Of a DNA stretch of 64,000 bases, positions 41,676-62,004 are shown piece after piece. Source of the stretch: an uncultured Candidatus Saccharibacteria bacterium (lineage in GTDB: Bacteria > Patescibacteriota > Andersenbacteria > UBA10190); assembly GCA_964392095.1 (NCBI GenBank), contig CAYMOF010000001.1:12401-76400 (forward strand). Reading direction: 5' to 3'. Position 1 is the stretch's first letter, and every line of letters starts with the position of its first letter. The notes under the pieces are model-generated. The model saw only the letters and a program-made list of their open reading frames with translations. It was not told the DNA's origin and did no database searches. Both the position numbers and the translations under genes were made by a program.

Positions 41676-42638
41676 ATGACCACACGCTCATATAAAAAAA
41701 CTATTTATCATCTTGTCAATATCCTGCGTCATGAAAAACCCACTGGTATTTTCCTTTTCATTCGCTACGCAATTAGTTATATAAGCATGAAAATCTTTTT
41801 ACCTAATAAACGATATGCCAGCAGAAAAATACACGGTTCCAGAATGATTCTCGATCTTAAAGACCCGGGCATCTCAAGGTCTTTATATCTCCTCGGTGAT
41901 CGTGAACGAGAACATTATTTTTTGCTTAAAAAAGCCATTCGCCCCCACCAAAGAATTTTAGACATCGGTGCCAATATAGGCTATTACGTACTCATAGAAC
42001 ACCGGCTCCTCCAAGAAAAAGGACACGTAATCGCTTTCGAGCCCTCCTCTAAAAACTTCACCCTCCTGAAAAAAAATATCAACTTAAACAAATTATCTAG
42101 TAAAACCACTCTTCTCCATACTGCCCTGGCCACCAAAGACGGCTTTTCGCGTCTCCATCTATCCCGCTTAGCCAATGTCCACAGTCTAATTAAAAAAAAT
42201 ACCGACTCTCCTACCGGCCACTCTATTCCCGTCCCCGCCACCTCCTTAGAAACAACCCTAGAAAAATATGGTCCTATAAATTTAATCCGAATGGATATAG
42301 AGGGCTATGAACACCTTGTTCTAAAATCGCTGATCAAGATAAACCAAACTAAAAATTTTACCCCCCACATAGTCATAGAACTTCACCCGCCCAAATACAA
42401 TAAAACTAAATTCCGGCAAACAATAAAGGAACTGTACCGCCTCGGCTATCAAGCCAAATACGTCGCCTGCTCTCACCTTGACCTGCTTCAAAAACATAAC
42501 TTAACCATAGTAAAAAGCATTCCCACGGACGGCACTGTCAGGCACATAGCCCAAAACGTTGAATTACGCCTCCTCAACAAAATCATCTTCTCCAGCCGAG
42601 CCATTCTTTTCTCCACCAAAAATTCTCTTGTTCCCTAA
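41676..42638 (+). CDS. FkbM-family SAM-dependent methyltransferase
   Basis: ILDIGANIGYYVL and MDIEGYEHLVLKS are FkbM-domain signatures. Confidence 0.75.
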   Translation: MTTRSYKKTIYHLVNILRHEKPTGIFLFIRYAISYISMKIFLPNKRYASRKIHGSRMILDLKDPGISRSLYLLGDREREHYFLLKKAIRPHQRILDIGANIGYYVLIEHRLLQEKGHVIAFEPSSKNFTLLKKNINLNKLSSKTTLLHTALATKDGFSRLHLSRLANVHSLIKKNTDSPTGHSIPVPATSLETTLEKYGPINLIRMDIEGYEHLVLKSLIKINQTKNFTPHIVIELHPPKYNKTKFRQTIKELYRLGYQAKYVACSHLDLLQKHNLTIVKSIPTDGTVRHIAQNVELRLLNKIIFSSRAILFSTKNSLVP

Positions 42639-42642
42639 TCTT

Positions 42643-43719
42643 ATGACTAATGTTTTTATCGATATTGTTCTACCCAAAGAATTAAAATGTGATCAGGCTT
42701 TTCAAAACATTTACTTCGTCACCTCCACCCATACTCGAAAACGCTCTCCGGCAGATTGGCAAAAAAAATTTAAAAAGTACTGTCGTCGCGGCCACTTCAA
42801 TTCCGAACTATTCTCCACGAAATTACTCAAGGGATTAAAAATTTTTTCTTTTTACAACCTTTCTTTTTCCCTGCCCTTTTTAGTTGTCAAAGAAAACCCC
42901 TCTTCCGTTACCATCAACCGATACGACTCCCCTAATTCAATACTGGTTTATTTCCTCACCCGCCTGCTGTGCCCTAAAGCAAAGATTTATTTCTATTCTG
43001 AAATGTGGATTTACCCCCAAAATCTGCTCTATAAAATATCATGGCCTGTAATCAGCTACCTCGCCACTCACGCCGACAAGCACTACGTTATAGGCTCGCA
43101 ACAAAAAAAATTCCTTATCAAAAAAAACGTCAGCCCCACAAAAATTATAGTCACCCGCGACGTGCCCTACGCGCCGATTCTTAAGACCTCCAACCTAGTC
43201 GCTCCTCTCAAAGAAAAGTTGGATCACAAAAAGACAATTGAACTGCTTTATATAGGAAGAATCATCCCCTATAAAGGCCTCTTTTATCTCCTCAAGGAAT
43301 ACAAAAAACTAACCGAGCTTTCCCCCAACAAATTTCATCTATCAATAGTCGGCGGCGGTAAAAATCATAACGAGTCTCAATTTTCCGGCGCCGATCCCGA
43401 CTATGAACAAAAGTGTCGTCAATATGCCAGCTTAAATCTCGCCTCTTCCGCATACGATTTCTACGGCTATCAAGAAAAAGTTGCCCCTTATTACAAAAAA
43501 GCTGATTTGTTAATTACCCCCAACATAATTGTCCTCCAAAACATAGTTCCCGCTGAAGCCTGGGGAAGAATAGTCCCTGAAGCTCTAAAAAACCATGTTC
43601 CGGTCCTGGCCACCACTGCCATCCCCTCCGCTCACGATTACATTAAGAACGACATAAACGGTTGGATTGTTAAAAAAATTAATTTCCAACCATTTATCAA
43701 ACTCATTCAAGATGTCTAA
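42643..43719 (+). CDS. GT-B glycosyltransferase, GT4-like
   Basis: C-terminal IVPEALKNHVPVLATTAIPSAHDYIKNDINGWIV. Start set to the ATG at 42643, just after the upstream stop. Confidence 0.55.
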   Translation: MTNVFIDIVLPKELKCDQAFQNIYFVTSTHTRKRSPADWQKKFKKYCRRGHFNSELFSTKLLKGLKIFSFYNLSFSLPFLVVKENPSSVTINRYDSPNSILVYFLTRLLCPKAKIYFYSEMWIYPQNLLYKISWPVISYLATHADKHYVIGSQQKKFLIKKNVSPTKIIVTRDVPYAPILKTSNLVAPLKEKLDHKKTIELLYIGRIIPYKGLFYLLKEYKKLTELSPNKFHLSIVGGGKNHNESQFSGADPDYEQKCRQYASLNLASSAYDFYGYQEKVAPYYKKADLLITPNIIVLQNIVPAEAWGRIVPEALKNHVPVLATTAIPSAHDYIKNDINGWIVKKINFQPFIKLIQDV

Positions 43720-45082
43720 ACGTCAAGCAATTATTTTTATAATTCTAGTCTTCCTAGTCACTAGGGGCCTTCTTTTTCTCCTGGAAAAAGATCTGTTTTT
43801 GTATAAATTTCCCTATCAAGACGACGCGCCCGCCTATCTTAAAATTTCCCAAATACTCCTTGGTCAAGAAAGCTACGAAAGCTCCAGCTTAAGCCCCTTT
43901 GTACGCGTCCCCGGCTACCCTCTTTTTCTTTCGGCTATTCAAAAACCAGCCGGCTTAAACAACTTCAAGACAATTTTCTTCATCCAGCAATTTATCTCTC
44001 TGGTCATTATTTTCACTTTATTCTTTTACCTCTGTAAAAAAACAAGTATCAAGATGGCCTTAACCCTGGTTCTAATTCTCGCCCTCTTCTTTGACTTCAC
44101 CTTATATGGTTTCCTTATACGTTCAGAAATACTCTTCACTTTTCTAATATTCTTTGGTACTCTAACCCACTTAAACACCGTTAATCGGCGTCAATTAAAA
44201 TGGGCGGTTTTAACCGGCCTTCTCTTTGGGTTGGCTACCCTAACTCGTCCGGTTTCTTTTTTAGCCTTTATTCCCTTATCTCTGACCATCCTGGCCACCA
44301 AACAAAAAGGCTTAAACACTATTGTCTCCTCTCTAAAACTCATTTTTGCCTTCCTTATACCTTTTGTCTTAGTTTTAACACCCTGGCTAACTAGAAACTA
44401 CTCCTTAAGCGGCCGCTTCCTTCTCCAGCAAGATTTAAGCAACATTTATTATGCCACCCTGCCAGGAGGCCACTGGCAGTCAGTCCAAATTACCGACGTA
44501 ATCGACACTGCCGACAAAGACTACCTTGCTATCGACTCCGAAATGACCGCCTTAGCTGTAAAAAACATCAAAGAAAAACCTAACGTCTGGATAAAAAACA
44601 GTCTGCGTAGTTTTCTCTATCGCCTCTGGTCGATGGGCTTCACTGATACCTATCTGCGCTACTTTGAATATACTCCTGACACCGGCGGTTATCACAAATC
44701 ATCCATCAGTCCCCTGTCTAAACTAATCAGCTCTATCAATATTTTTTCAAATCGCTATTCAATAAATCCAATCCATCACCTATACCTTGTTATTAATAAT
44801 ATAATTGGCTTTTCTTTTATCTTAATGTCTCTTTTCTGCCTAATCGTATTTCCCTACTTTAAAAGAAACGCCATCGTGATTTTCACAATATTTCTATATT
44901 TCTGGAGTATCACCTCGATTTTTGCCTTCAGCGGCTCACGTTATATGATCCCTATGGTGCCCCTCCTTTTCCTCTTGACTCCAGACATACTCGCAGGTGC
45001 CCGCTCACTATTCAGTCCCCAAAAAGAGTCCCTGTCTTACCACTCTTTTATAAAAAGATCGCTCTTAAAACCCTTTTCCTGA
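43712..45082 (+). CDS. ArnT/PMT-family (GT39/GT83-like) lipid-carrier-dependent membrane glycosyltransferase
   Basis: FVRVPGYPLFLSAIQ matches the R-x-P-x-YP-x-FL family motif, with multi-TM topology. The ATG at 43712 overlaps the upstream stop (gATGtcTAA). Confidence 0.6.
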   Translation: MSKRQAIIFIILVFLVTRGLLFLLEKDLFLYKFPYQDDAPAYLKISQILLGQESYESSSLSPFVRVPGYPLFLSAIQKPAGLNNFKTIFFIQQFISLVIIFTLFFYLCKKTSIKMALTLVLILALFFDFTLYGFLIRSEILFTFLIFFGTLTHLNTVNRRQLKWAVLTGLLFGLATLTRPVSFLAFIPLSLTILATKQKGLNTIVSSLKLIFAFLIPFVLVLTPWLTRNYSLSGRFLLQQDLSNIYYATLPGGHWQSVQITDVIDTADKDYLAIDSEMTALAVKNIKEKPNVWIKNSLRSFLYRLWSMGFTDTYLRYFEYTPDTGGYHKSSISPLSKLISSINIFSNRYSINPIHHLYLVINNIIGFSFILMSLFCLIVFPYFKRNAIVIFTIFLYFWSITSIFAFSGSRYMIPMVPLLFLLTPDILAGARSLFSPQKESLSYHSFIKRSLLKPFS

Positions 45083-53149: not shown

Positions 53150-53995
53150 TTATTTCTTCTGCCTTAATTCCCTAAGCTTAGATGTTACTAAGAGCAAAGA
53201 TCTAACAATCTTCTCTGTAAACTTACGCGGTCCTTCTATTGGATTCAACTGTCTCTGGCAAGCTACTTTCAACACAAACTCATTGTCAACATTCCTATAT
53301 AAACCCCGCTCGTAACAGCCTCGCCCCCTAGCCTCCATTATCGGCTCTAAACCCTCTTTAATAAACTTGTCTGGCCTCGGCAGAGCCGCCGTCTCCAACA
53401 AAGCTACTCTGTATCCAGCATCAAACAATTCGCTCAAAACCCCCTTCAAAGAGCGCCCCTCGTCATATATTAATGGATGCACTTCCATTAATATATTTAC
53501 TTCATTTGTCCTTTTCAAATAATCCAGGCTTCCCCGCAACACATCCACCTCATAACCTTCTATGTCCATTTTTACAACTATGGGTCCACAAATATCTTGC
53601 TCTTTTATGAAGCTTTCAAGGGTAACATACTCTGTCTTTATTGAATCATCATAAGACTCCGCGGCAATTGCCGTGCTTAAATTCCTTTTCTTTTTATTCA
53701 AATAAAAAAAACCTTTACCGCTCTGGTCAGAAACCGCCTGGGAAAATAAATAAAAATTATCTCGACTGCCCAGAATCCTAGTTATTTTATTTCTGTTATA
53801 ACTGTCCGGCTCCAAAATATAAATCTTAATATCGTCACCATATTTTTTGAACAAGTATCTAGCCTCATAACCATCGCTCGACCCAATTTCTATAACATTC
53901 GTACCAGCTACCACCGCCTCATCCAACATGGCCATAAATATCGGCTCTCTCGGCTCTCTTTTTAAAATCTTAACAAGTTGTCGCGCCTTAATCAT
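53150..53995 (-). CDS. FkbM-family SAM-dependent methyltransferase
   Basis: NVIEIGSSDGYEARYL and VVKMDIEGYEVDVLRGS. Confidence 0.7.
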   Translation of the reverse strand: MIKARQLVKILKREPREPIFMAMLDEAVVAGTNVIEIGSSDGYEARYLFKKYGDDIKIYILEPDSYNRNKITRILGSRDNFYLFSQAVSDQSGKGFFYLNKKKRNLSTAIAAESYDDSIKTEYVTLESFIKEQDICGPIVVKMDIEGYEVDVLRGSLDYLKRTNEVNILMEVHPLIYDEGRSLKGVLSELFDAGYRVALLETAALPRPDKFIKEGLEPIMEARGRGCYERGLYRNVDNEFVLKVACQRQLNPIEGPRKFTEKIVRSLLLVTSKLRELRQKK

Positions 53996-54585
53996 CTAAC
54001 AAATCTTTTTAAAACACTCTTCAGCCACGCCCCCAGTCTCCCCTTGGCTCTGATCCTGTTTTCTAAATACTCGCTCTGATCCGTTTCCATTTTGGGAGTC
54101 TGCCAGTCTCCGTATTGATACTCTAAATACTCTTCCGGCGACGACGGACATTCATACCAGCTCCCCCGAAACAAAATCTTCCCCGTATTATTAAAAAACT
54201 TAATCGGATAACGCCAGTTCCTCCTTTTTCTGAATCTGCTCTTCTCCTCATATCCTAATAAAGAATATTTCGTTCCATACTTATGAACATTAATCTTCAT
54301 GTTGCCCTTATCGATCACTATCGACCCCGGCCTAAAACCTGAATTTCTCAACCCTTCTTTTATTGCCTCGAATTTTTCCTGCATCTGCTCCGCGTACAAA
54401 GCCAGCTCCACATCCCAGTCCCACTTAATAAAATCTTTTTCTCTCACCGCCCCCAACAAAACCCCGTCAATCAACAAAAATTTTACCCCCAAGCCATCCA
54501 ACACCCTTTTTATTTGAACCAAACCTTCATTGCGATTTTCCAACTCCTCTTTAGAAAATATTTTTAGCTTTTTATCCAACTTCAT
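53992..54585 (-). CDS. LicD-family phosphotransferase (phosphocholine/alditol-phosphate transferase family)
   Basis: KFLLIDGVLLGAVREKDFIKWDWDVELAL matches the LicD motif (LLGAVRH.GFIPWDDDIDV). Confidence 0.75.
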   Translation of the reverse strand: MKLDKKLKIFSKEELENRNEGLVQIKRVLDGLGVKFLLIDGVLLGAVREKDFIKWDWDVELALYAEQMQEKFEAIKEGLRNSGFRPGSIVIDKGNMKINVHKYGTKYSLLGYEEKSRFRKRRNWRYPIKFFNNTGKILFRGSWYECPSSPEEYLEYQYGDWQTPKMETDQSEYLENRIRAKGRLGAWLKSVLKRFVR

Positions 54586-54604
54586 ATTTTATCTTAATAT
54601 CAAA

Positions 54605-54724
54605 GCTAGTTCTTTTGGCGAATTAGAGGTCCTTTTCGGCCTGGTCCCACGCTCAGCGTGGACGAAAAGGGCCAAAGCCTCGGAGCTACCGCTGGGGCAA
54701 CGAGAATGAGCCAAAAGAACTAGC
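54605..54724. repeat. 120-bp GC-rich palindromic element. Perfect 15-bp terminal inverted repeats enclose nested hairpins. Candidate structured RNA or MITE-like element.
   Basis: GCTAGTTCTTTTGGC (54605-54619) is the exact reverse complement of GCCAAAAGAACTAGC (54710-54724). Inner stems are 54631-54638/54663-54670 (CCTTTTCG/CGAAAAGG) and 54647-54652/54656-54661 (CCACGC/GCGTGG). Confidence 0.4.
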
Positions 54725-54746
54725 CTTGATAATCCAAAACATAAAC

Positions 54747-55568
54747 TCACCATTTCCCCTTATAAAATAATCTCTGAAAAGGCACCGGAATAAAATGCTT
54801 CGGCGCCATCCCTAAATGCTTTACTTTTTCTTTCGGTAAATATTTCTTCCATAATTCCAACTTATCATAAAAGCACTTTAGCCTCTTATACCTCATATCA
54901 GACCATTTGTGCTGAAACGGCTTGCCGATAATCAGATAATATATAGGGCCTTTATAGTGCAATATATGGCATTCCTCACCCCACGGCTCATAATGCCGCG
55001 CTCTATTTAACTCACCCACATAAAAACCCTTAAACCTCACTCCATATTTAGTAAACGGCTTCGTATAATCCTCTCCCTCAACCAATGACATAAACGCGTG
55101 TTGATCAGTACCTCCTTTATCAACAATTTCCATAGTCTTTTCTTTGTACTTCCTGAAAAAATCCCTTACCGCCCGATTATTCCTACACAACATCACCCCG
55201 CTGTTTAACCACTCTTTCGGCACATGTGACAAATATCGGTAAGTAAAACCTATATCATAATCTCCAAAATACTGATCGACGGGCTTTAAAATCAGTGTAT
55301 CCGCGTCCATAAACAACACCCAATCTCCCTCAGCCTTCTCCAGACCCATCTCCCAGCAAGGTAGTTTCAAGCTTCCTGGATGGGGATGCGAATCCATCTT
55401 TTCCCGCAAAATAACATCTTCAATGGGAATATCCTTGCCTACCACAATAGGCTTAATGCCCGGATAAACCCGCCTGATGCTTTCTTTTAAAGCTTCCAAA
55501 AACAAGTCAACCTTGCTCCCAAAAGCCGCCACCACTATGTCTAAACCATTTTTTTTAATATTGGTCAT
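54747..55568 (-). CDS. GT8-like nucleotide-diphospho-sugar (GT-A) glycosyltransferase
   Basis: FMDADTLIL (DXD) and WLNSGVMLCRNN (GT8 motif resembling F.NSGVLLIN). Confidence 0.5.
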   Translation of the reverse strand: MTNIKKNGLDIVVAAFGSKVDLFLEALKESIRRVYPGIKPIVVGKDIPIEDVILREKMDSHPHPGSLKLPCWEMGLEKAEGDWVLFMDADTLILKPVDQYFGDYDIGFTYRYLSHVPKEWLNSGVMLCRNNRAVRDFFRKYKEKTMEIVDKGGTDQHAFMSLVEGEDYTKPFTKYGVRFKGFYVGELNRARHYEPWGEECHILHYKGPIYYLIIGKPFQHKWSDMRYKRLKCFYDKLELWKKYLPKEKVKHLGMAPKHFIPVPFQRLFYKGKW

Positions 55569-55577
55569 TGGCCATCA

Positions 55578-55606
55578 TTGACTAGTAGTCATCTGTCCAT
55601 TATACA
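55578..55606 (+). promoter_or_regulatory. Sigma70-type promoter candidate (TTGACT-N17-TATACA) embedded in the 13-bp palindrome TGACTAGTAGTCA
   Basis: TTGACT at 55578-55583, a 17-nt spacer, TATACA at 55601-55606, and GAAGG about 8 nt before the 55678 ATG. The palindrome at 55579-55591 overlaps the -35. Confidence 0.35.
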
Positions 55607-55677
55607 TACAAGGCCTGAACTGCCATAGTCGGCGTCAGGAAAATTCGCACCTTTCACAATTTCTGAAGGCTTTAGTC

Positions 55678-56456
55678 ATGAGTTTCAAGCTCCAAGTTCT
55701 CGGTTCTGGTATCGCTGCTCCTTTTGATAACCGCATGCCTTCCGGATACCTCGTCATCACCGGCAACACAGAGATCTTGCTCGAATGCAATCCATTCACT
55801 ATCGGAGCCCGCCTATCCGCCATTAACATCACCTCAATCTCTGGAATCCTCGTCACCCACGCCCACAACGACCACTCCGGTGGAGAAGTCGCCTTCCTGG
55901 AAGCCTTCCGCACCAGACACAAAATACTCGGAAAGCCGATTCCCCCCTTTACTTTATGCGGCCCCGCCCCAAACCGTTTCTTCAAGACATACCTTAAAAA
56001 ACAACTTCAGTGGCGCTGGCCGGAATTGCCAGAAGAAGATTGTTTTTGGAAAATCCCATCAGAATTGAATCGCTTCTCGCTGGGTGATGCCTGGATAACC
56101 GCCTTTCCTGTCAACCGCGTCCCCGAAATGCCGGCCGTCGGCTACCATATCCAGTATGGAAATCAGTCCTTAGTCTACTGCGGCGATTTTGGCACCACTC
56201 AATTCCAAAACGTCAACACCCTTGGCCAGTGGATCACCGACGCTGACCTGCTCATCCTCGACTGCGGAGCCCCCACTGAATCCCCAGCCACCTGACCATT
56301 GAGCAGGGCCACAAGATCAAACAGCGGTTCCTCGCCCGCAAACTCCTGGCCACCCACATTCCCGCTCACCGCGTAGGAAATGTCCGCGAGCGCATCGCTG
56401 CCCTCAATGACCCAGATGTCATCCTCGCTGAAGATCTCATGGTGCTTGATATCTAA
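55678..56456 (+). pseudogene. MBL-fold metallo-hydrolase, ~60% GC, interrupted by a frameshift near 56280-56293
   Basis: ILVTHAHNDHSGG (HxHxDH) and CGDFG. The ORF stops at 56295, but the C-terminal remainder (HLTIEQGHKIKQRFLARKLLATHIPAHR...MVLDI*) continues in another frame from 56280 to 56456. The shift maps to C-homopolymers (CCCCC at 56270-56274, CCCC at 56282-56285). Confidence 0.6.
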
Positions 56457-56554
56457 ACCAACTTCAGCAACTTCCCGCAACACATAGCACCCTCTTCTAC
56501 CATCCCTAGTTTACCTCGGATGGTTTTTTCTTACCAAACAATACTCGCAAGTTA

Positions 56555-57235
56555 TCATTTTCCATTTTCTCTCCTTCCCCACATTCTCTTCACCTTCCCT
56601 AAAATATTCTTCAACACCACATTTCCTCTTTTTCCAGCAAAATGATCCGCGTTATAATACTCCTCATCAATATCGGATCTCTTGGGGGTTTGCCAGTCAC
56701 CATAAACATGCTCCAAGAACTTTTCCGGCGGTGACGGCACTAAAAACTGCCTCCCCTTAAAATCGATTTTCTCTTTTTCGTTGAAAAAACGAGCCGGGTA
56801 CTTATAAGCCGGACGAGTCCTGTACTCACCATCGTCACGCAATGCCCCTAAAGCGATTTTTTGGCCGTATTTAAAAAACGCCATCTTAGGAAACCTATTA
56901 CTTTCAATCAACCGCACCACGAAACCAGCCTCTATCAACCTTTCTTTCAATTCCTTCATCACCCCGACAAACTCCTCCTCCAACATGTCCAAATCAACAT
57001 CATCGTCCCAGGCAATGAAATTATTCTCTCTAATTGCCCCCAGTAAACTTCCCCCCGTTAACCAAAACCTGACGCCGGCAGAACTCAATACGTCGCTGGC
57101 CTCCTGCAAGGCCTTCTCTCTTGCCTGTAAATCAAACGGGTAAGGTTGGACTACTCGGGGTCTTGCTTTTTTCCATCTCCTGCGCGACAGGTTGCTCAAA
57201 CGCCTGATTTCACCTTGTGAAAATTCGTAACTCAT
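56555..57235 (-). CDS. LicD-family phosphotransferase (second paralog)
   Basis: RFWLTGGSLLGAIRENNFIAWDDDVDLDM. Roughly 45% identical by eye to the LicD at 53992. Confidence 0.75.
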   Translation of the reverse strand: MSYEFSQGEIRRLSNLSRRRWKKARPRVVQPYPFDLQAREKALQEASDVLSSAGVRFWLTGGSLLGAIRENNFIAWDDDVDLDMLEEEFVGVMKELKERLIEAGFVVRLIESNRFPKMAFFKYGQKIALGALRDDGEYRTRPAYKYPARFFNEKEKIDFKGRQFLVPSPPEKFLEHVYGDWQTPKRSDIDEEYYNADHFAGKRGNVVLKNILGKVKRMWGRRENGK

Positions 57236-59796: not shown

Positions 59797-62004
59797 TTAA
59801 TAAAACACTCTCTTTCCAGCCCCTACCCTTTTTCTAACCATCTCCTGAATCTCCCTCCGCATAAACCAGTCCGGCAGATCCCTGCCTTCCTGAAAAGCCT
59901 TGCGGGCCTGGGTACCGCTAATCATCTCCACTGTGCCCGCTTCACTCAAACTCACATAAGTTTTCCTTTTAGGATTAAAACCAACCGCCTCAAAGAATAC
60001 CGGCTCAACACCAATATCCCCAACCTTTTCAAATATTTCCTTTGTTTCTCTGGGCTTATAAAAATCTCCTACTCCAGTATGGTCGCGCCCGACAATAAAA
60101 TGGCTACACCCCATATTTTTCCTGCATAAGGCAGTAAATACTGCCTCCCTGGGGCCGGCGTATCTTGAATAAGTGGAAAAGCTTCCTAAAACAGCCCTGC
60201 CTTTAGGATAAGCTCCGTTTTTAATAGCCAGTTCATAGCTTCTCATTATCGGCCCCGTTAACCAGTCACCGCTTTTCTTAGGGCCTATCACCGGGCTCAA
60301 AAATAACCCGCTTGCTCCCGTCCTTTTAAGGGCCGTCAACTGCAAATACTCGTGCGCTCTATGCACCACATTTCTTGTATGAAAACCCACCACTTTACGC
60401 CACCCCTTATGGGTAAATATTTGCCGCGTCTGATGCGGATCCAGCTCATATTTCCGCCAAACAGAATCCCCTTTTTCTATCAATTCCACCTCTCCCGCTA
60501 TAAACATCTCCCCCGATTCCATAAACCTTCTCACTCCCGGATGATCCCGAGACGTTGTCTTAAACCACAGCCTGGCCGCTTCTTCCCGATCACATTCATA
60601 AACTTCGCTAACTTTCAATAAACTATGCTTTTTGCCCTTGCCATCTTTTAGAACAACTCTCATGCCCGGTTTAATTTTTTCAGCTCTTCTTCTATCTACC
60701 TGCAATATAACCGGCATAGTCCAAACGCACCCGTTCAGCAATTTCATATCATATAAAACACTAAACAGCTCGTCTTTAGTCATAAATCCAGAAACCGGTG
60801 AAAATGTGCCTAGAGCGATCTGCTCACAATCCATCAGGTCGGTATCCTCCACTGTCAAGCTCATCAAATCATCTAAATCTTCCTTTGAACCGCTATACAA
60901 ATTTTTCAAAAGTTTTCCCCCGTGAGGCTCCACCAGCATAGACACCGAAGTGGACACTATGAAGCTTTTCGTTTCTCCGACCTCCCTTTCATATTGCTTC
61001 ATTAATCTTATTATCATTTCCGCGCAAGCTACCGGATATCTGCCCACCGCCGTCTCAGCCGCTAACACCAAACCGTCAGCCCCGTCCGCTAAAGTGTTGT
61101 AAATATCATTAACTTCCGCCCTGGTAGGAACAGGCGCTTCCACCATAGATTCCAACAGATTAGTGGCCACGTAAACGCGCCTGTCCAGATTATGACACTC
61201 AGCAATTATTTTTTTCTGCAAACGAGGAAGCAGCTCTATTGAAGCCTCCCGCGACAAATCGCCTCGATCAATCAAGATATCGTTCGCGCTTGCGGCAATC
61301 TGCTTCAAATTTAACAACCCTTCTTCACATTCAATTTTCGCCGTAACCTTAAACCCTTCCCCAACAATTTCTCTCACCTCTTGTATATCTTCAACGCGAT
61401 GAGCAAAAGATAACGCCACGTTGCTTATCCCCAAACCTTTAACCTGCTTCAAAGCCTCTCTGTCTTTATCTGTTAAAGGAGATAACCTTATTTTTCTATC
61501 AACAGAAAGAGCTTTGTTCTGCTCAATTATCCCTTCTTCCAAAACCTTTAAAATCACTTTTTTCTCGTCTTTTACAATAACCCGCAACAAAACTTTTCTA
61601 TAATCAACGGTCACCAGATCCCCAACCCGCAAGCTTCTGCCTACTTCTTCTGGGTAAAAACTGAAATTAGGCCCCGCGGCTATCGCGTTACCCCCACCTT
61701 CTTTTAGATAAACCGTTAACTCCTCCTCCTCTTCCACCCAAATTTTTCTTCCTCCCTGATATCCCGTCCTGGGCTGGGCTCCTTCCGTATCAATACATAT
61801 CGGAACCGCGCTGTGTCTTCTAACCAGCCCCACCAAATTACCTAAATCATAAACATCCGTATGAGACATGTTGATTCTGAACAAATTAACCCCCAGATCC
61901 GTTAAGCTCCTTATTACCTCCGCGTTCATTGACGCCGGTCCCAAGGTGCACCAAACTTCTTTTCCCTTATTAAATTTGGATATTTCTGACATAAACTTCG
62001 TCAA
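59797..62004 (-). CDS. Fusion protein: pyruvate-kinase-like N-terminal domain (A+B domains, catalytic residues conserved) joined to a complete ATP sulfurylase (sulfate adenylyltransferase, Sat type)
   Basis: N-terminal part: TLGPAS..NLFRINMSHTD, IDTEGAQPRTG, KIECEEG, DRGDLS, ATNLLESMVEAPVPTRAEVNDIYNTLADGADGLVLAAETAVGRYP (PK signatures). C-terminal part: PUA-like segment LVEPHGGKLL..., then GFHTRNVVHRAHEYL (QTRNP.HRAHE motif) and IVGRDHTGVGDFY (GRDHAG motif). Confidence 0.75.
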   Translation of the reverse strand: MTKFMSEISKFNKGKEVWCTLGPASMNAEVIRSLTDLGVNLFRINMSHTDVYDLGNLVGLVRRHSAVPICIDTEGAQPRTGYQGGRKIWVEEEEELTVYLKEGGGNAIAAGPNFSFYPEEVGRSLRVGDLVTVDYRKVLLRVIVKDEKKVILKVLEEGIIEQNKALSVDRKIRLSPLTDKDREALKQVKGLGISNVALSFAHRVEDIQEVREIVGEGFKVTAKIECEEGLLNLKQIAASANDILIDRGDLSREASIELLPRLQKKIIAECHNLDRRVYVATNLLESMVEAPVPTRAEVNDIYNTLADGADGLVLAAETAVGRYPVACAEMIIRLMKQYEREVGETKSFIVSTSVSMLVEPHGGKLLKNLYSGSKEDLDDLMSLTVEDTDLMDCEQIALGTFSPVSGFMTKDELFSVLYDMKLLNGCVWTMPVILQVDRRRAEKIKPGMRVVLKDGKGKKHSLLKVSEVYECDREEAARLWFKTTSRDHPGVRRFMESGEMFIAGEVELIEKGDSVWRKYELDPHQTRQIFTHKGWRKVVGFHTRNVVHRAHEYLQLTALKRTGASGLFLSPVIGPKKSGDWLTGPIMRSYELAIKNGAYPKGRAVLGSFSTYSRYAGPREAVFTALCRKNMGCSHFIVGRDHTGVGDFYKPRETKEIFEKVGDIGVEPVFFEAVGFNPKRKTYVSLSEAGTVEMISGTQARKAFQEGRDLPDWFMRREIQEMVRKRVGAGKRVFY

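Follow-up and report, generated by a model that had tools for sequence, protein, structure and literature searches.

A frameshifted MBL-fold hydrolase gene in a surface-glycan biosynthesis cluster

The gene, its neighbours, and its orthologs

We analysed a stretch of 64,000 nucleotides of DNA (the window). The original prediction was that 55678-56456, on the plus strand, encodes an MBL-fold hydrolase with a broken reading frame, and this is correct (Table 1). Once the frame is restored, the protein matches Lactamase_B_2 from Pfam (PF12706) with 60.3 bits (the cut-off is 27; E = 2.6e-16). The match covers residues 50-228, crosses the frame break, and reaches the last position of the profile (200/200). 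The break had been placed at 56280-56293, and frame 0 does stop there, at the TGA at 56293-56295. In frame +2, an open stretch begins at 56280 and runs to the TAA at 56454-56456. It encodes SHLTIEQGHKIKQRFLARKLLATHIPAHR...LMVLDI; this C-terminal remainder includes LATHIPAHR, as had been noticed. Adding one C joins the two frames into a single ORF of 259 aa, in agreement with the ~259 aa that had been proposed.

Table 1. Features of the MBL locus and its immediate neighbours (positions are those of the window)
Feature	Position	Strand	Details	Basis
LicD-1	53992..54585	-	paralog of LicD-2	
Nucleotide-diphospho-sugar-transferase-like protein (the glycosyltransferase-like gene of the text)	54747..55568	-	divergent neighbour; synteny anchor	
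Sigma-70-like promoter candidate	55578..55606	+	TTGACT (55578-55583), 17-nt spacer, TATACA (55601-55606)	read from the sequence
Divergent promoter-like site for the glycosyltransferase-like gene	55599..55626	-	ATGGCA-16-TATAAT	scan, 10/12 matches
Shine-Dalgarno-like sequence	55665..55669	+	GAAGG, 8 nt before the ATG; GGAGG in both orthologs	
Frame-0 ORF	55678..56295	+	205 aa; N-terminal four fifths of the MBL hydrolase, with HAHNDH (H61-H66) and D170; premature TGA	
Codon for Arg147	56116..56118	+	CGC; CAC (His) in the orthologs; motif III metal ligand, equivalent to His140 of B. subtilis RNase Z	
Frameshift zone	56282..56290	+	CCCCAGCCA; one base short relative to the intact ortholog, CCCCAACCCA	comparison with L018
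C-terminal remainder	56286..56456	+	SHLTIEQ...LMVLDI-stop, with conserved H205, motif V ligand H227, A251, and D253	frame +2
Terminator-like hairpin	56499..56530	+	7-bp stem with a loop of 12 nt, followed by TTTTTT; lies where the MBL and LicD-2 genes converge	z = -1.9
LicD-2	56555..57235	-	convergent with the MBL gene	PF04991, E = 2.4e-16

The restored protein has motif II (HxHxDH) as H61-A-H63-N-D65-H66, and these columns are invariant or nearly so across 106 sequences. The aspartate of motif IV and the histidine of motif V are not in one frame: D170 is in frame 0, and H227 and H205 are in frame +2 only. Missing from the frame-0 product are H205, H227 (a ligand at site 2), and the final three beta-strands of the predicted fold. 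This 205-aa product is present in public protein collections as P0001, which comes from an NCBI contig of 83,730 nt, and is a truncated fragment of the 259-aa MBL hydrolase. We think that the entry deserves a flag as a probable pseudogene, and that the case matters little beyond annotation.

The gene lies within a very large cluster for the biosynthesis of surface glycans, and its orientation is opposite to that of the surrounding run of minus-strand genes. The cluster encodes many glycosyltransferases, flippases, FkbM and other methyltransferases, two LicD proteins, a sulfotransferase, and a sulfatase-like protein. The MBL gene had been described as sitting between two LicD paralogs. The two LicD proteins are indeed paralogs (38% identity, E = 1e-36) and LicD-2 is adjacent to the MBL gene, but the glycosyltransferase-like gene separates it from LicD-1.

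A 735-aa ORF on the minus strand (59797-62004) fuses a pyruvate-kinase barrel, a PUA_2 domain, and an ATP-sulfurylase domain, which is an unusual architecture, and this fusion adjoins the sulfotransferase and sulfatase-like genes. An ORF with a GT1 domain (42559-43719, plus strand) stops at position 153 of 172 in the profile and overlaps the ORF for a PMT_2-like membrane protein (43667-45082, plus strand) by 53 nt. This overlap could be natural, or it could reflect a second, subtler problem with the reading frame.

The sequence between the glycosyltransferase-like gene and LicD-1 (54586-54746, transcribed from the minus strand) folds into a hairpin of ~150 nt, with a minimum free energy of -71.3 kcal/mol (z = -5.8). 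Its 22-bp basal stem is built on exact 15-nt arms (GCTAGTTCTTTTGGC / GCCAAAAGAACTAGC). A counterpart is found at the same place in the related contig L017 (~1545-1715; z = -5.7); the stems are ~90% conserved, with U-A in place of C-G at one pair, and the apical loop varies. The hairpin is single-copy in the window and has no match in Rfam, even at E <= 1. Candidate explanations are a structured RNA, a processing site, and an old MITE-like insertion.

To find orthologs of the MBL protein, we used a word-indexed search of 5.8 billion proteins, which returned only the truncated product P0001 and one ortholog, P0002. A scan of metagenomes with the conserved neighbour as the query found L018 only. 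L018 is the JGI twin of the ENA contig that is the source of P0002 (L001), and it contains a complete and intact gene of 261 aa, ending in ...DLMILDI and a stop codon. A third lineage, L017, was reached via the neighbouring gene. The ortholog in L017 (1-612, reverse strand) is frameshifted as well, by a different 1-nt change near codon 50 (CTTGA-TTC), at a site that is not a homopolymer. Sequence of the L018 and L017 lineages is found in JGI Ga0180301, JGI 3300035158, and ENA ERZ1742239. Both L017 and L018 are short metagenome contigs of low coverage, and the frameshift in L017 could itself be an error.

The public sequences have some problems of their own. At the end of L001 (ENA ERZ1742239), positions 1717-1786 are a Nextera adapter (CTGTCTCTTATACACATCT...), and the adapter has been translated into residues 237-257 of P0002 as ...CLLYTSPSPRDLSTSRMPSSA; we took the true C-terminus from L018. 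In L017, the last ~50 nt of the ortholog diverge from the other two sequences, and no gene is called there.

The arrangement is constant over the three lineages: the MBL gene and the glycosyltransferase-like gene point away from each other, with the same intergenic region between them. The neighbour is 88-91% identical among the lineages at the protein level, and the MBL proteins are only 66-72% identical. The MBL gene has a dN/dS of 0.18-0.30, compared to 0.02-0.05 in the neighbour; dS between the lineages is ~0.8-1.4, which is near saturation. We propose that the gene has probably been at its present position, under moderate purifying selection, since before the split of the three known lineages.

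The original prediction also included a well-formed sigma70-like promoter with an operator-like palindrome. The two hexamers are present and are invariant in the three lineages, whereas the spacer varies in L001 and L017. The palindrome (GACTAGTAGTC, 55580-55590) is conserved in neither relative, and we rejected it as an operator. Our consensus scan did not call this promoter because the sixth base of the -10 hexamer is not T. The promoter-like site on the minus strand, for the glycosyltransferase-like gene (start codon at 55568), is a better match than the plus-strand candidate. Because it uses the same conserved bases, their conservation cannot be assigned to either gene alone. At the other end of the gene, the scan missed the terminator-like hairpin because its loop is longer than 8 nt. 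The leader RNA folds no better than shuffled sequence does (z = -0.09). The gene has promoter-like and terminator-like sites of its own. The locus is probably a monocistronic gene for a cytoplasmic MBL-fold hydrolase of ~259 aa.

In the 5' leader and the intergenic sequence (55612-55677), two blocks, GAACT.CCATAGT and CGCACCTTTCACAA, are invariant in the three lineages despite near-saturated synonymous sites. The -35 element of the minus-strand promoter-like site falls on the first of these blocks.

Composition and origin

The gene had been described as ~60% GC. We found a GC content of 53.8%, versus 42.3% for the window, and the richest 60-nt lines have 62-63% rather than 68%. The anomaly itself holds up: the gene is the maximum of the window, the next best stretch of 779 nt is at 49.0%, and there is no other such peak in the 64 kb. 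Across the genes of the window, the GC content is 42.2 ± 2.0%, which puts the MBL gene at z = 6, and its GC3 is 0.63 versus 0.446 ± 0.031. GC1 is an outlier as well (z = 3.4), and compared to its neighbours, the protein has fewer K, S, and Y residues and more P, A, G, T, and H residues.

The strong excess of C over G in the window had been thought to be absent from the gene. In fact the skew is -0.255 in the gene versus -0.319 in the window, and at third codon positions, the gene's skew of -0.56 is indistinguishable from that of 33 native plus-strand genes (-0.53 ± 0.08). At synonymous sites, the excess is of C only. C3 is 0.49 in the gene versus 0.34 ± 0.03 in native genes (whose maximum is 0.40), and G3 is native-like, at 0.14 versus 0.105 ± 0.02. 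An excess confined to C is not a straightforward mark of a GC-rich donor. The orthologs share the composition, with a GC content of 52-53% and a C3 of 0.49-0.52 over the lineages.

Throughout the window (1-64000), the strands are extremely asymmetric regardless of the orientation of the genes: the GC skew is ~-0.32 throughout, and on the coding strand of 18 minus-strand genes, the GC3 skew is +0.46.

The gene had been proposed to be horizontally acquired cargo. This is not demonstrated: the site and the composition are the same in all three lineages, and we found neither a donor nor signs of mobility. In an exhaustive HMMER search of 1.84 billion representatives, no hit outside the gene's own cluster was below 1e-30; the best of the others had E = 1.6e-26 and 31% identity, and the closest relatives outside the clade are at most 32% identical. 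In a genome scan, the relatives among the matches listed have 21-37% identity and are spread over many phyla. The nearest distant hit is on a plasmid-like contig with 60% GC that also encodes Replic_Relax and ParA; this hints at mobility in the wider family but does not go beyond a hint. The contexts of the nearest distant homologs are unrelated to that of the MBL gene, so they do not support an inference about its function.

Within the window, we found no mobility genes and no tRNA that could be a target; the flanking genes encode LicD, glycosyltransferase-like, and methyltransferase proteins. Scans of the window for rRNAs, tRNAs, and Rfam families found none, and the direct repeats that flank the gene are of chance-level length (10-13 nt). 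Across the three lineages sampled, we saw neither a patchy presence nor a closer homolog in a distant lineage: the gene is at the same site in all of them.

We also asked if the gene is losing its excess of C. Of the 85 synonymous sites that can be compared, 51 vary, and the polarised changes include 27 from C and 10 to C. Simulations under a stationary C-rich model give 26.0 changes from C and 12.5 to C (P = 0.32). We therefore rejected the net loss of C as evidence for amelioration, as parsimony bias alone yields similar counts under stationarity. A model in which C3 starts at ~0.7 in the ancestor and decays toward that of native genes fits equally well. Because both models fit, stationary and decaying compositions are indistinguishable.

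The C-rich composition is old and common to the lineages. A recent acquisition is not supported, and an ancient acquisition is possible but unproven; both an old acquisition and a gene-specific codon bias fit. As to the origin only, we tentatively consider that this may be a native accessory gene whose C-richness is a stable, gene-specific bias in codons and amino acids. This would account for a composition that raises C3 alone at synonymous sites, that is constant in three lineages even though so many of the comparable sites vary, and whose polarised substitution counts the stationary model reproduces. The native-like GC3 skew, the conserved synteny, and the absence of mobility signatures also argue for it. 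On the other hand, the GC1 and the amino acid content deviate, the gene is a lone unit on the opposite strand with promoter-like and terminator-like sites of its own, and slow amelioration from an ancestor with a C3 of ~0.7 fits equally. Also, translational selection on the codons of a highly expressed gene is not what a dN/dS of 0.2-0.3 suggests. More generally, a GC peak by itself is weak evidence for recent transfer: this one is shared by syntenic orthologs, is due to C only at synonymous sites, and has the strand skew of the host.

The frameshift and the Arg147 substitution

Relative to the intact 261-aa ortholog in L018, the window is missing a single base. CCAG-CCACC in the window aligns to CCAACCCACC in L018 or, in a wider view, GAATCCCCAG-CCACCTGA aligns to GAATCCCCAACCCACCTAA, and the ortholog encodes APTESPTHLTIEQ in a single frame. 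The missing base is most parsimoniously a C of the CC at 56288-56289 (CCC in the ortholog); on this alignment, restoring it would give ...ESPAHLTIEQ.... A gap in the C4 run (ESPSHLT) would require one extra substitution. The break had been reported to lie beside runs of CCCCC and CCCC. The deletion site is just 3' of the C4 run, but the lengths of the C5 and C4 runs are unchanged in L018.

The deletion of one base at codon 204 would lead translation to stop at the TGA at 56293-56295, and would put H205, H227, and the last three beta-strands out of frame. The out-of-frame tail has no stop in its own frame, and over 55 codons, its dN/dS relative to L018 is 0.15.

The window's copy also has a substitution at a conserved residue. 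We aligned the restored protein with 104 relatives from the exhaustive HMMER search. H61, H66, D170, and H227 are invariant across the alignment, and H63, D65, H147, and H205 are over 90% conserved. Position 147, the histidine of motif III, is His in 100 of the 104 distant relatives and in both L018 and L017, and it is Arg in the window. In profile alignments to structures, column 147 aligns to the viHG histidine of RNase Z from B. subtilis (1y44) and to the equivalent histidine of YhfI and BA1088. In the MBL family, this histidine is a ligand of the first metal site.

The ancestral enzyme would have had two metal ions, with H61, H63, and H147 at site 1, D65, H66, and H227 at site 2, and D170 as the bridge, and its reaction would be the hydrolysis of a phosphodiester or, possibly, of a sulfate ester. 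The change from His147 to Arg would remove a ligand from site 1. The window's copy has two more departures at conserved columns, R157H and K163Q, that are not seen in the other copies. Still, amino acid changes specific to the window are not in excess (18 versus 14 and 13 in a relative-rate test with the three lineages). Apart from R147, the window's lineage shows no sign of relaxed selection.

We think that this is probably a real and recent inactivation of an ordinary accessory gene from a known superfamily. The original prediction had left the choice between a decaying gene and a homopolymer error; decay is favoured by the existence of an intact ortholog, by R147, by the frameshift in L017, and by the intact neighbours, and an error is less likely. 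About 51 other genes in the window have complete domains, and the only long non-coding gap is the MBL locus. Because these ~51 neighbours are intact and dN/dS in the tail is 0.15, the break is recent or, less likely, an assembly error. R147 is a substitution and not a homopolymer-type error, which speaks for a real mutation. And because a second lineage (L017) has a different frameshift, the gene appears to be dispensable.

Alternatively, the gene might be intact and functional, with the missing C being an indel from assembly or sequencing in a short run of C. The break is a single base within a C run, as this would require. The tail keeps H205, H227, A251, and D253 as well as its low dN/dS, and the gene still has its promoter hexamers, its Shine-Dalgarno-like sequence, and its terminator-like hairpin; a conserved tail is equally expected from an error in a live gene. 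We nevertheless consider an error to be rather unlikely. The ~51 other genes are unbroken even though the other coding sequence holds 1193 runs of C or G of at least 3 bases (329 of them with at least 4 bases), the affected run is just 2-3 bases, and the same copy independently carries an Arg at the histidine ligand of motif III.

Programmed -1 ribosomal frameshifting, or a C-tract switch for phase variation of a glycan-modifying enzyme, seems very improbable to us: the gene does lie inside a surface-glycan cluster, frameshifts are present in two of the three lineages, and tract slippage is an established on/off switch elsewhere in bacteria (at lic and LOS loci), but the C runs are 2-5 bases, which is far too short, C5 and C4 have the same length in L018, and the frameshift in L017 is elsewhere and not in a homopolymer. 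Programmed frameshifting in particular is unsupported because 56280-56293 has no X XXY YYZ slippery heptamer and the L018 ortholog is in a single frame.

Relationship to known enzymes

Structure prediction from the single sequence was useless (pLDDT of 34), so we used an alignment-based AlphaFold model of the restored protein instead (106 sequences; pLDDT of 94.4 and pTM of 0.92). This model has the alpha-beta/beta-alpha sandwich fold. It matches 288 entries in PDB at E <= 0.001, and the best 50 of the 288 are all MBL-fold entries. The ranking begins with 1zkp and YhfI (6kns/6knt), followed by an MBL arylsulfatase (8gyg), ELAC1, RNase Z, PhnP, and Apyc1, with TM scores of ~0.8. A profile search against the sequences in PDB gave the same order. 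From its sequence and its predicted fold, we conclude that the protein is probably from the ELAC/RNase Z-like branch and lacks the tRNA-binding arm, like YhfI and BA1088. Because it scores far below every curated equivalog cut-off, we consider it a divergent member of the branch that belongs to no named family.

The closest known proteins are YhfI from B. subtilis and BA1088 from B. anthracis (1zkp). YhfI-type enzymes are class II phosphodiesterases with two zinc ions (PMC9117128). Like the restored protein, they have ~250 aa and no tRNA-binding arm, and their HxHxDH, Asp, and His motifs are in the same order. The TM scores are 0.78-0.84 (Foldseek E ~5e-18), and the profile E values are 3e-49 and 1e-48. 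However, the identity is only 19-21%, and the gene in the window is in a glycan cluster and has R147 and the frameshift. Also, the clade differs from the family in having E36 and N38 in place of D and G. The score for the NCBIfam model of cyclic-nucleotide phosphodiesterases (NF041851) is just 26 bits, versus a cut-off of 400.

RNase Z, ELAC1, and ELAC2 are tRNA 3' endonucleases from the same branch of the MBL superfamily, and column 147 corresponds to a zinc ligand in RNase Z (His140 in the B. subtilis enzyme). In contrast to these enzymes, the window's protein lacks the insertion for the flexible arm: 1zkp and 6kns, which have no arm, align with its 259 aa from one end to the other. Its score for TIGR02651 is 43.3 bits, versus a cut-off of 293.

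Apyc1, which is a cyclic-nucleotide phosphodiesterase that phages use against Pycsar (PF23023), has structural similarity to the protein and a weak match to its N-terminal part, but at 28.2 bits, this is below Pfam's cut-off of 50, and the context in the window is neither phage nor defence. We rejected a role in a defence system, as PADLOC found no match. PhnP (TIGR03307) is also distant, with 32 bits versus a cut-off of 272, and the neighbouring genes are for glycan biosynthesis rather than a phn operon.

The arylsulfatase from Pseudoalteromonas atlantica (8gyg) is similar in structure (TMq of 0.80) and by profile (E = 1.1e-44), and the cluster in the window encodes a sulfotransferase and an ATP sulfurylase. 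But the identity is 16-17%, 8gyg is ~45 residues longer, and sulfatase chemistry is putative for the window's protein.

The family and the neighbouring genes (LicD and the sulfotransferase) are our basis for a substrate and a role: it is reasonable to infer that the intact enzyme would trim a substituent that is a phosphodiester or a sulfate. We view the clade of three lineages as a divergent, uncharacterised offshoot of the ELAC/YhfI phosphodiesterases that is linked to LicD-type decoration of glycans. A more elaborate scenario, which we consider improbable, is that the protein is a cytoplasmic editing esterase that removes phosphodiesters (added by LicD) or sulfates from a glycan precursor, that repeated and independent inactivation (the deletion and H147R here, another frameshift in L017) gives on/off variation of the decoration at the level of strains in an uncultivated lineage of extreme strand asymmetry, and that the excess of codons ending in C reflects a selective or mutational regime of the gene's own.

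A functional parallel might be Pce (CbpE) from Streptococcus pneumoniae, which is a secreted MBL-fold phosphorylcholine esterase with choline-binding repeats and which trims the phosphocholine that LicD adds. Pce is not among the top structural matches and, unlike Pce, the window's protein has no signal peptide or extra domain. What the two would have in common is that Pce is also an MBL-fold phosphodiesterase that is functionally tied to LicD-type decoration of surface glycans.
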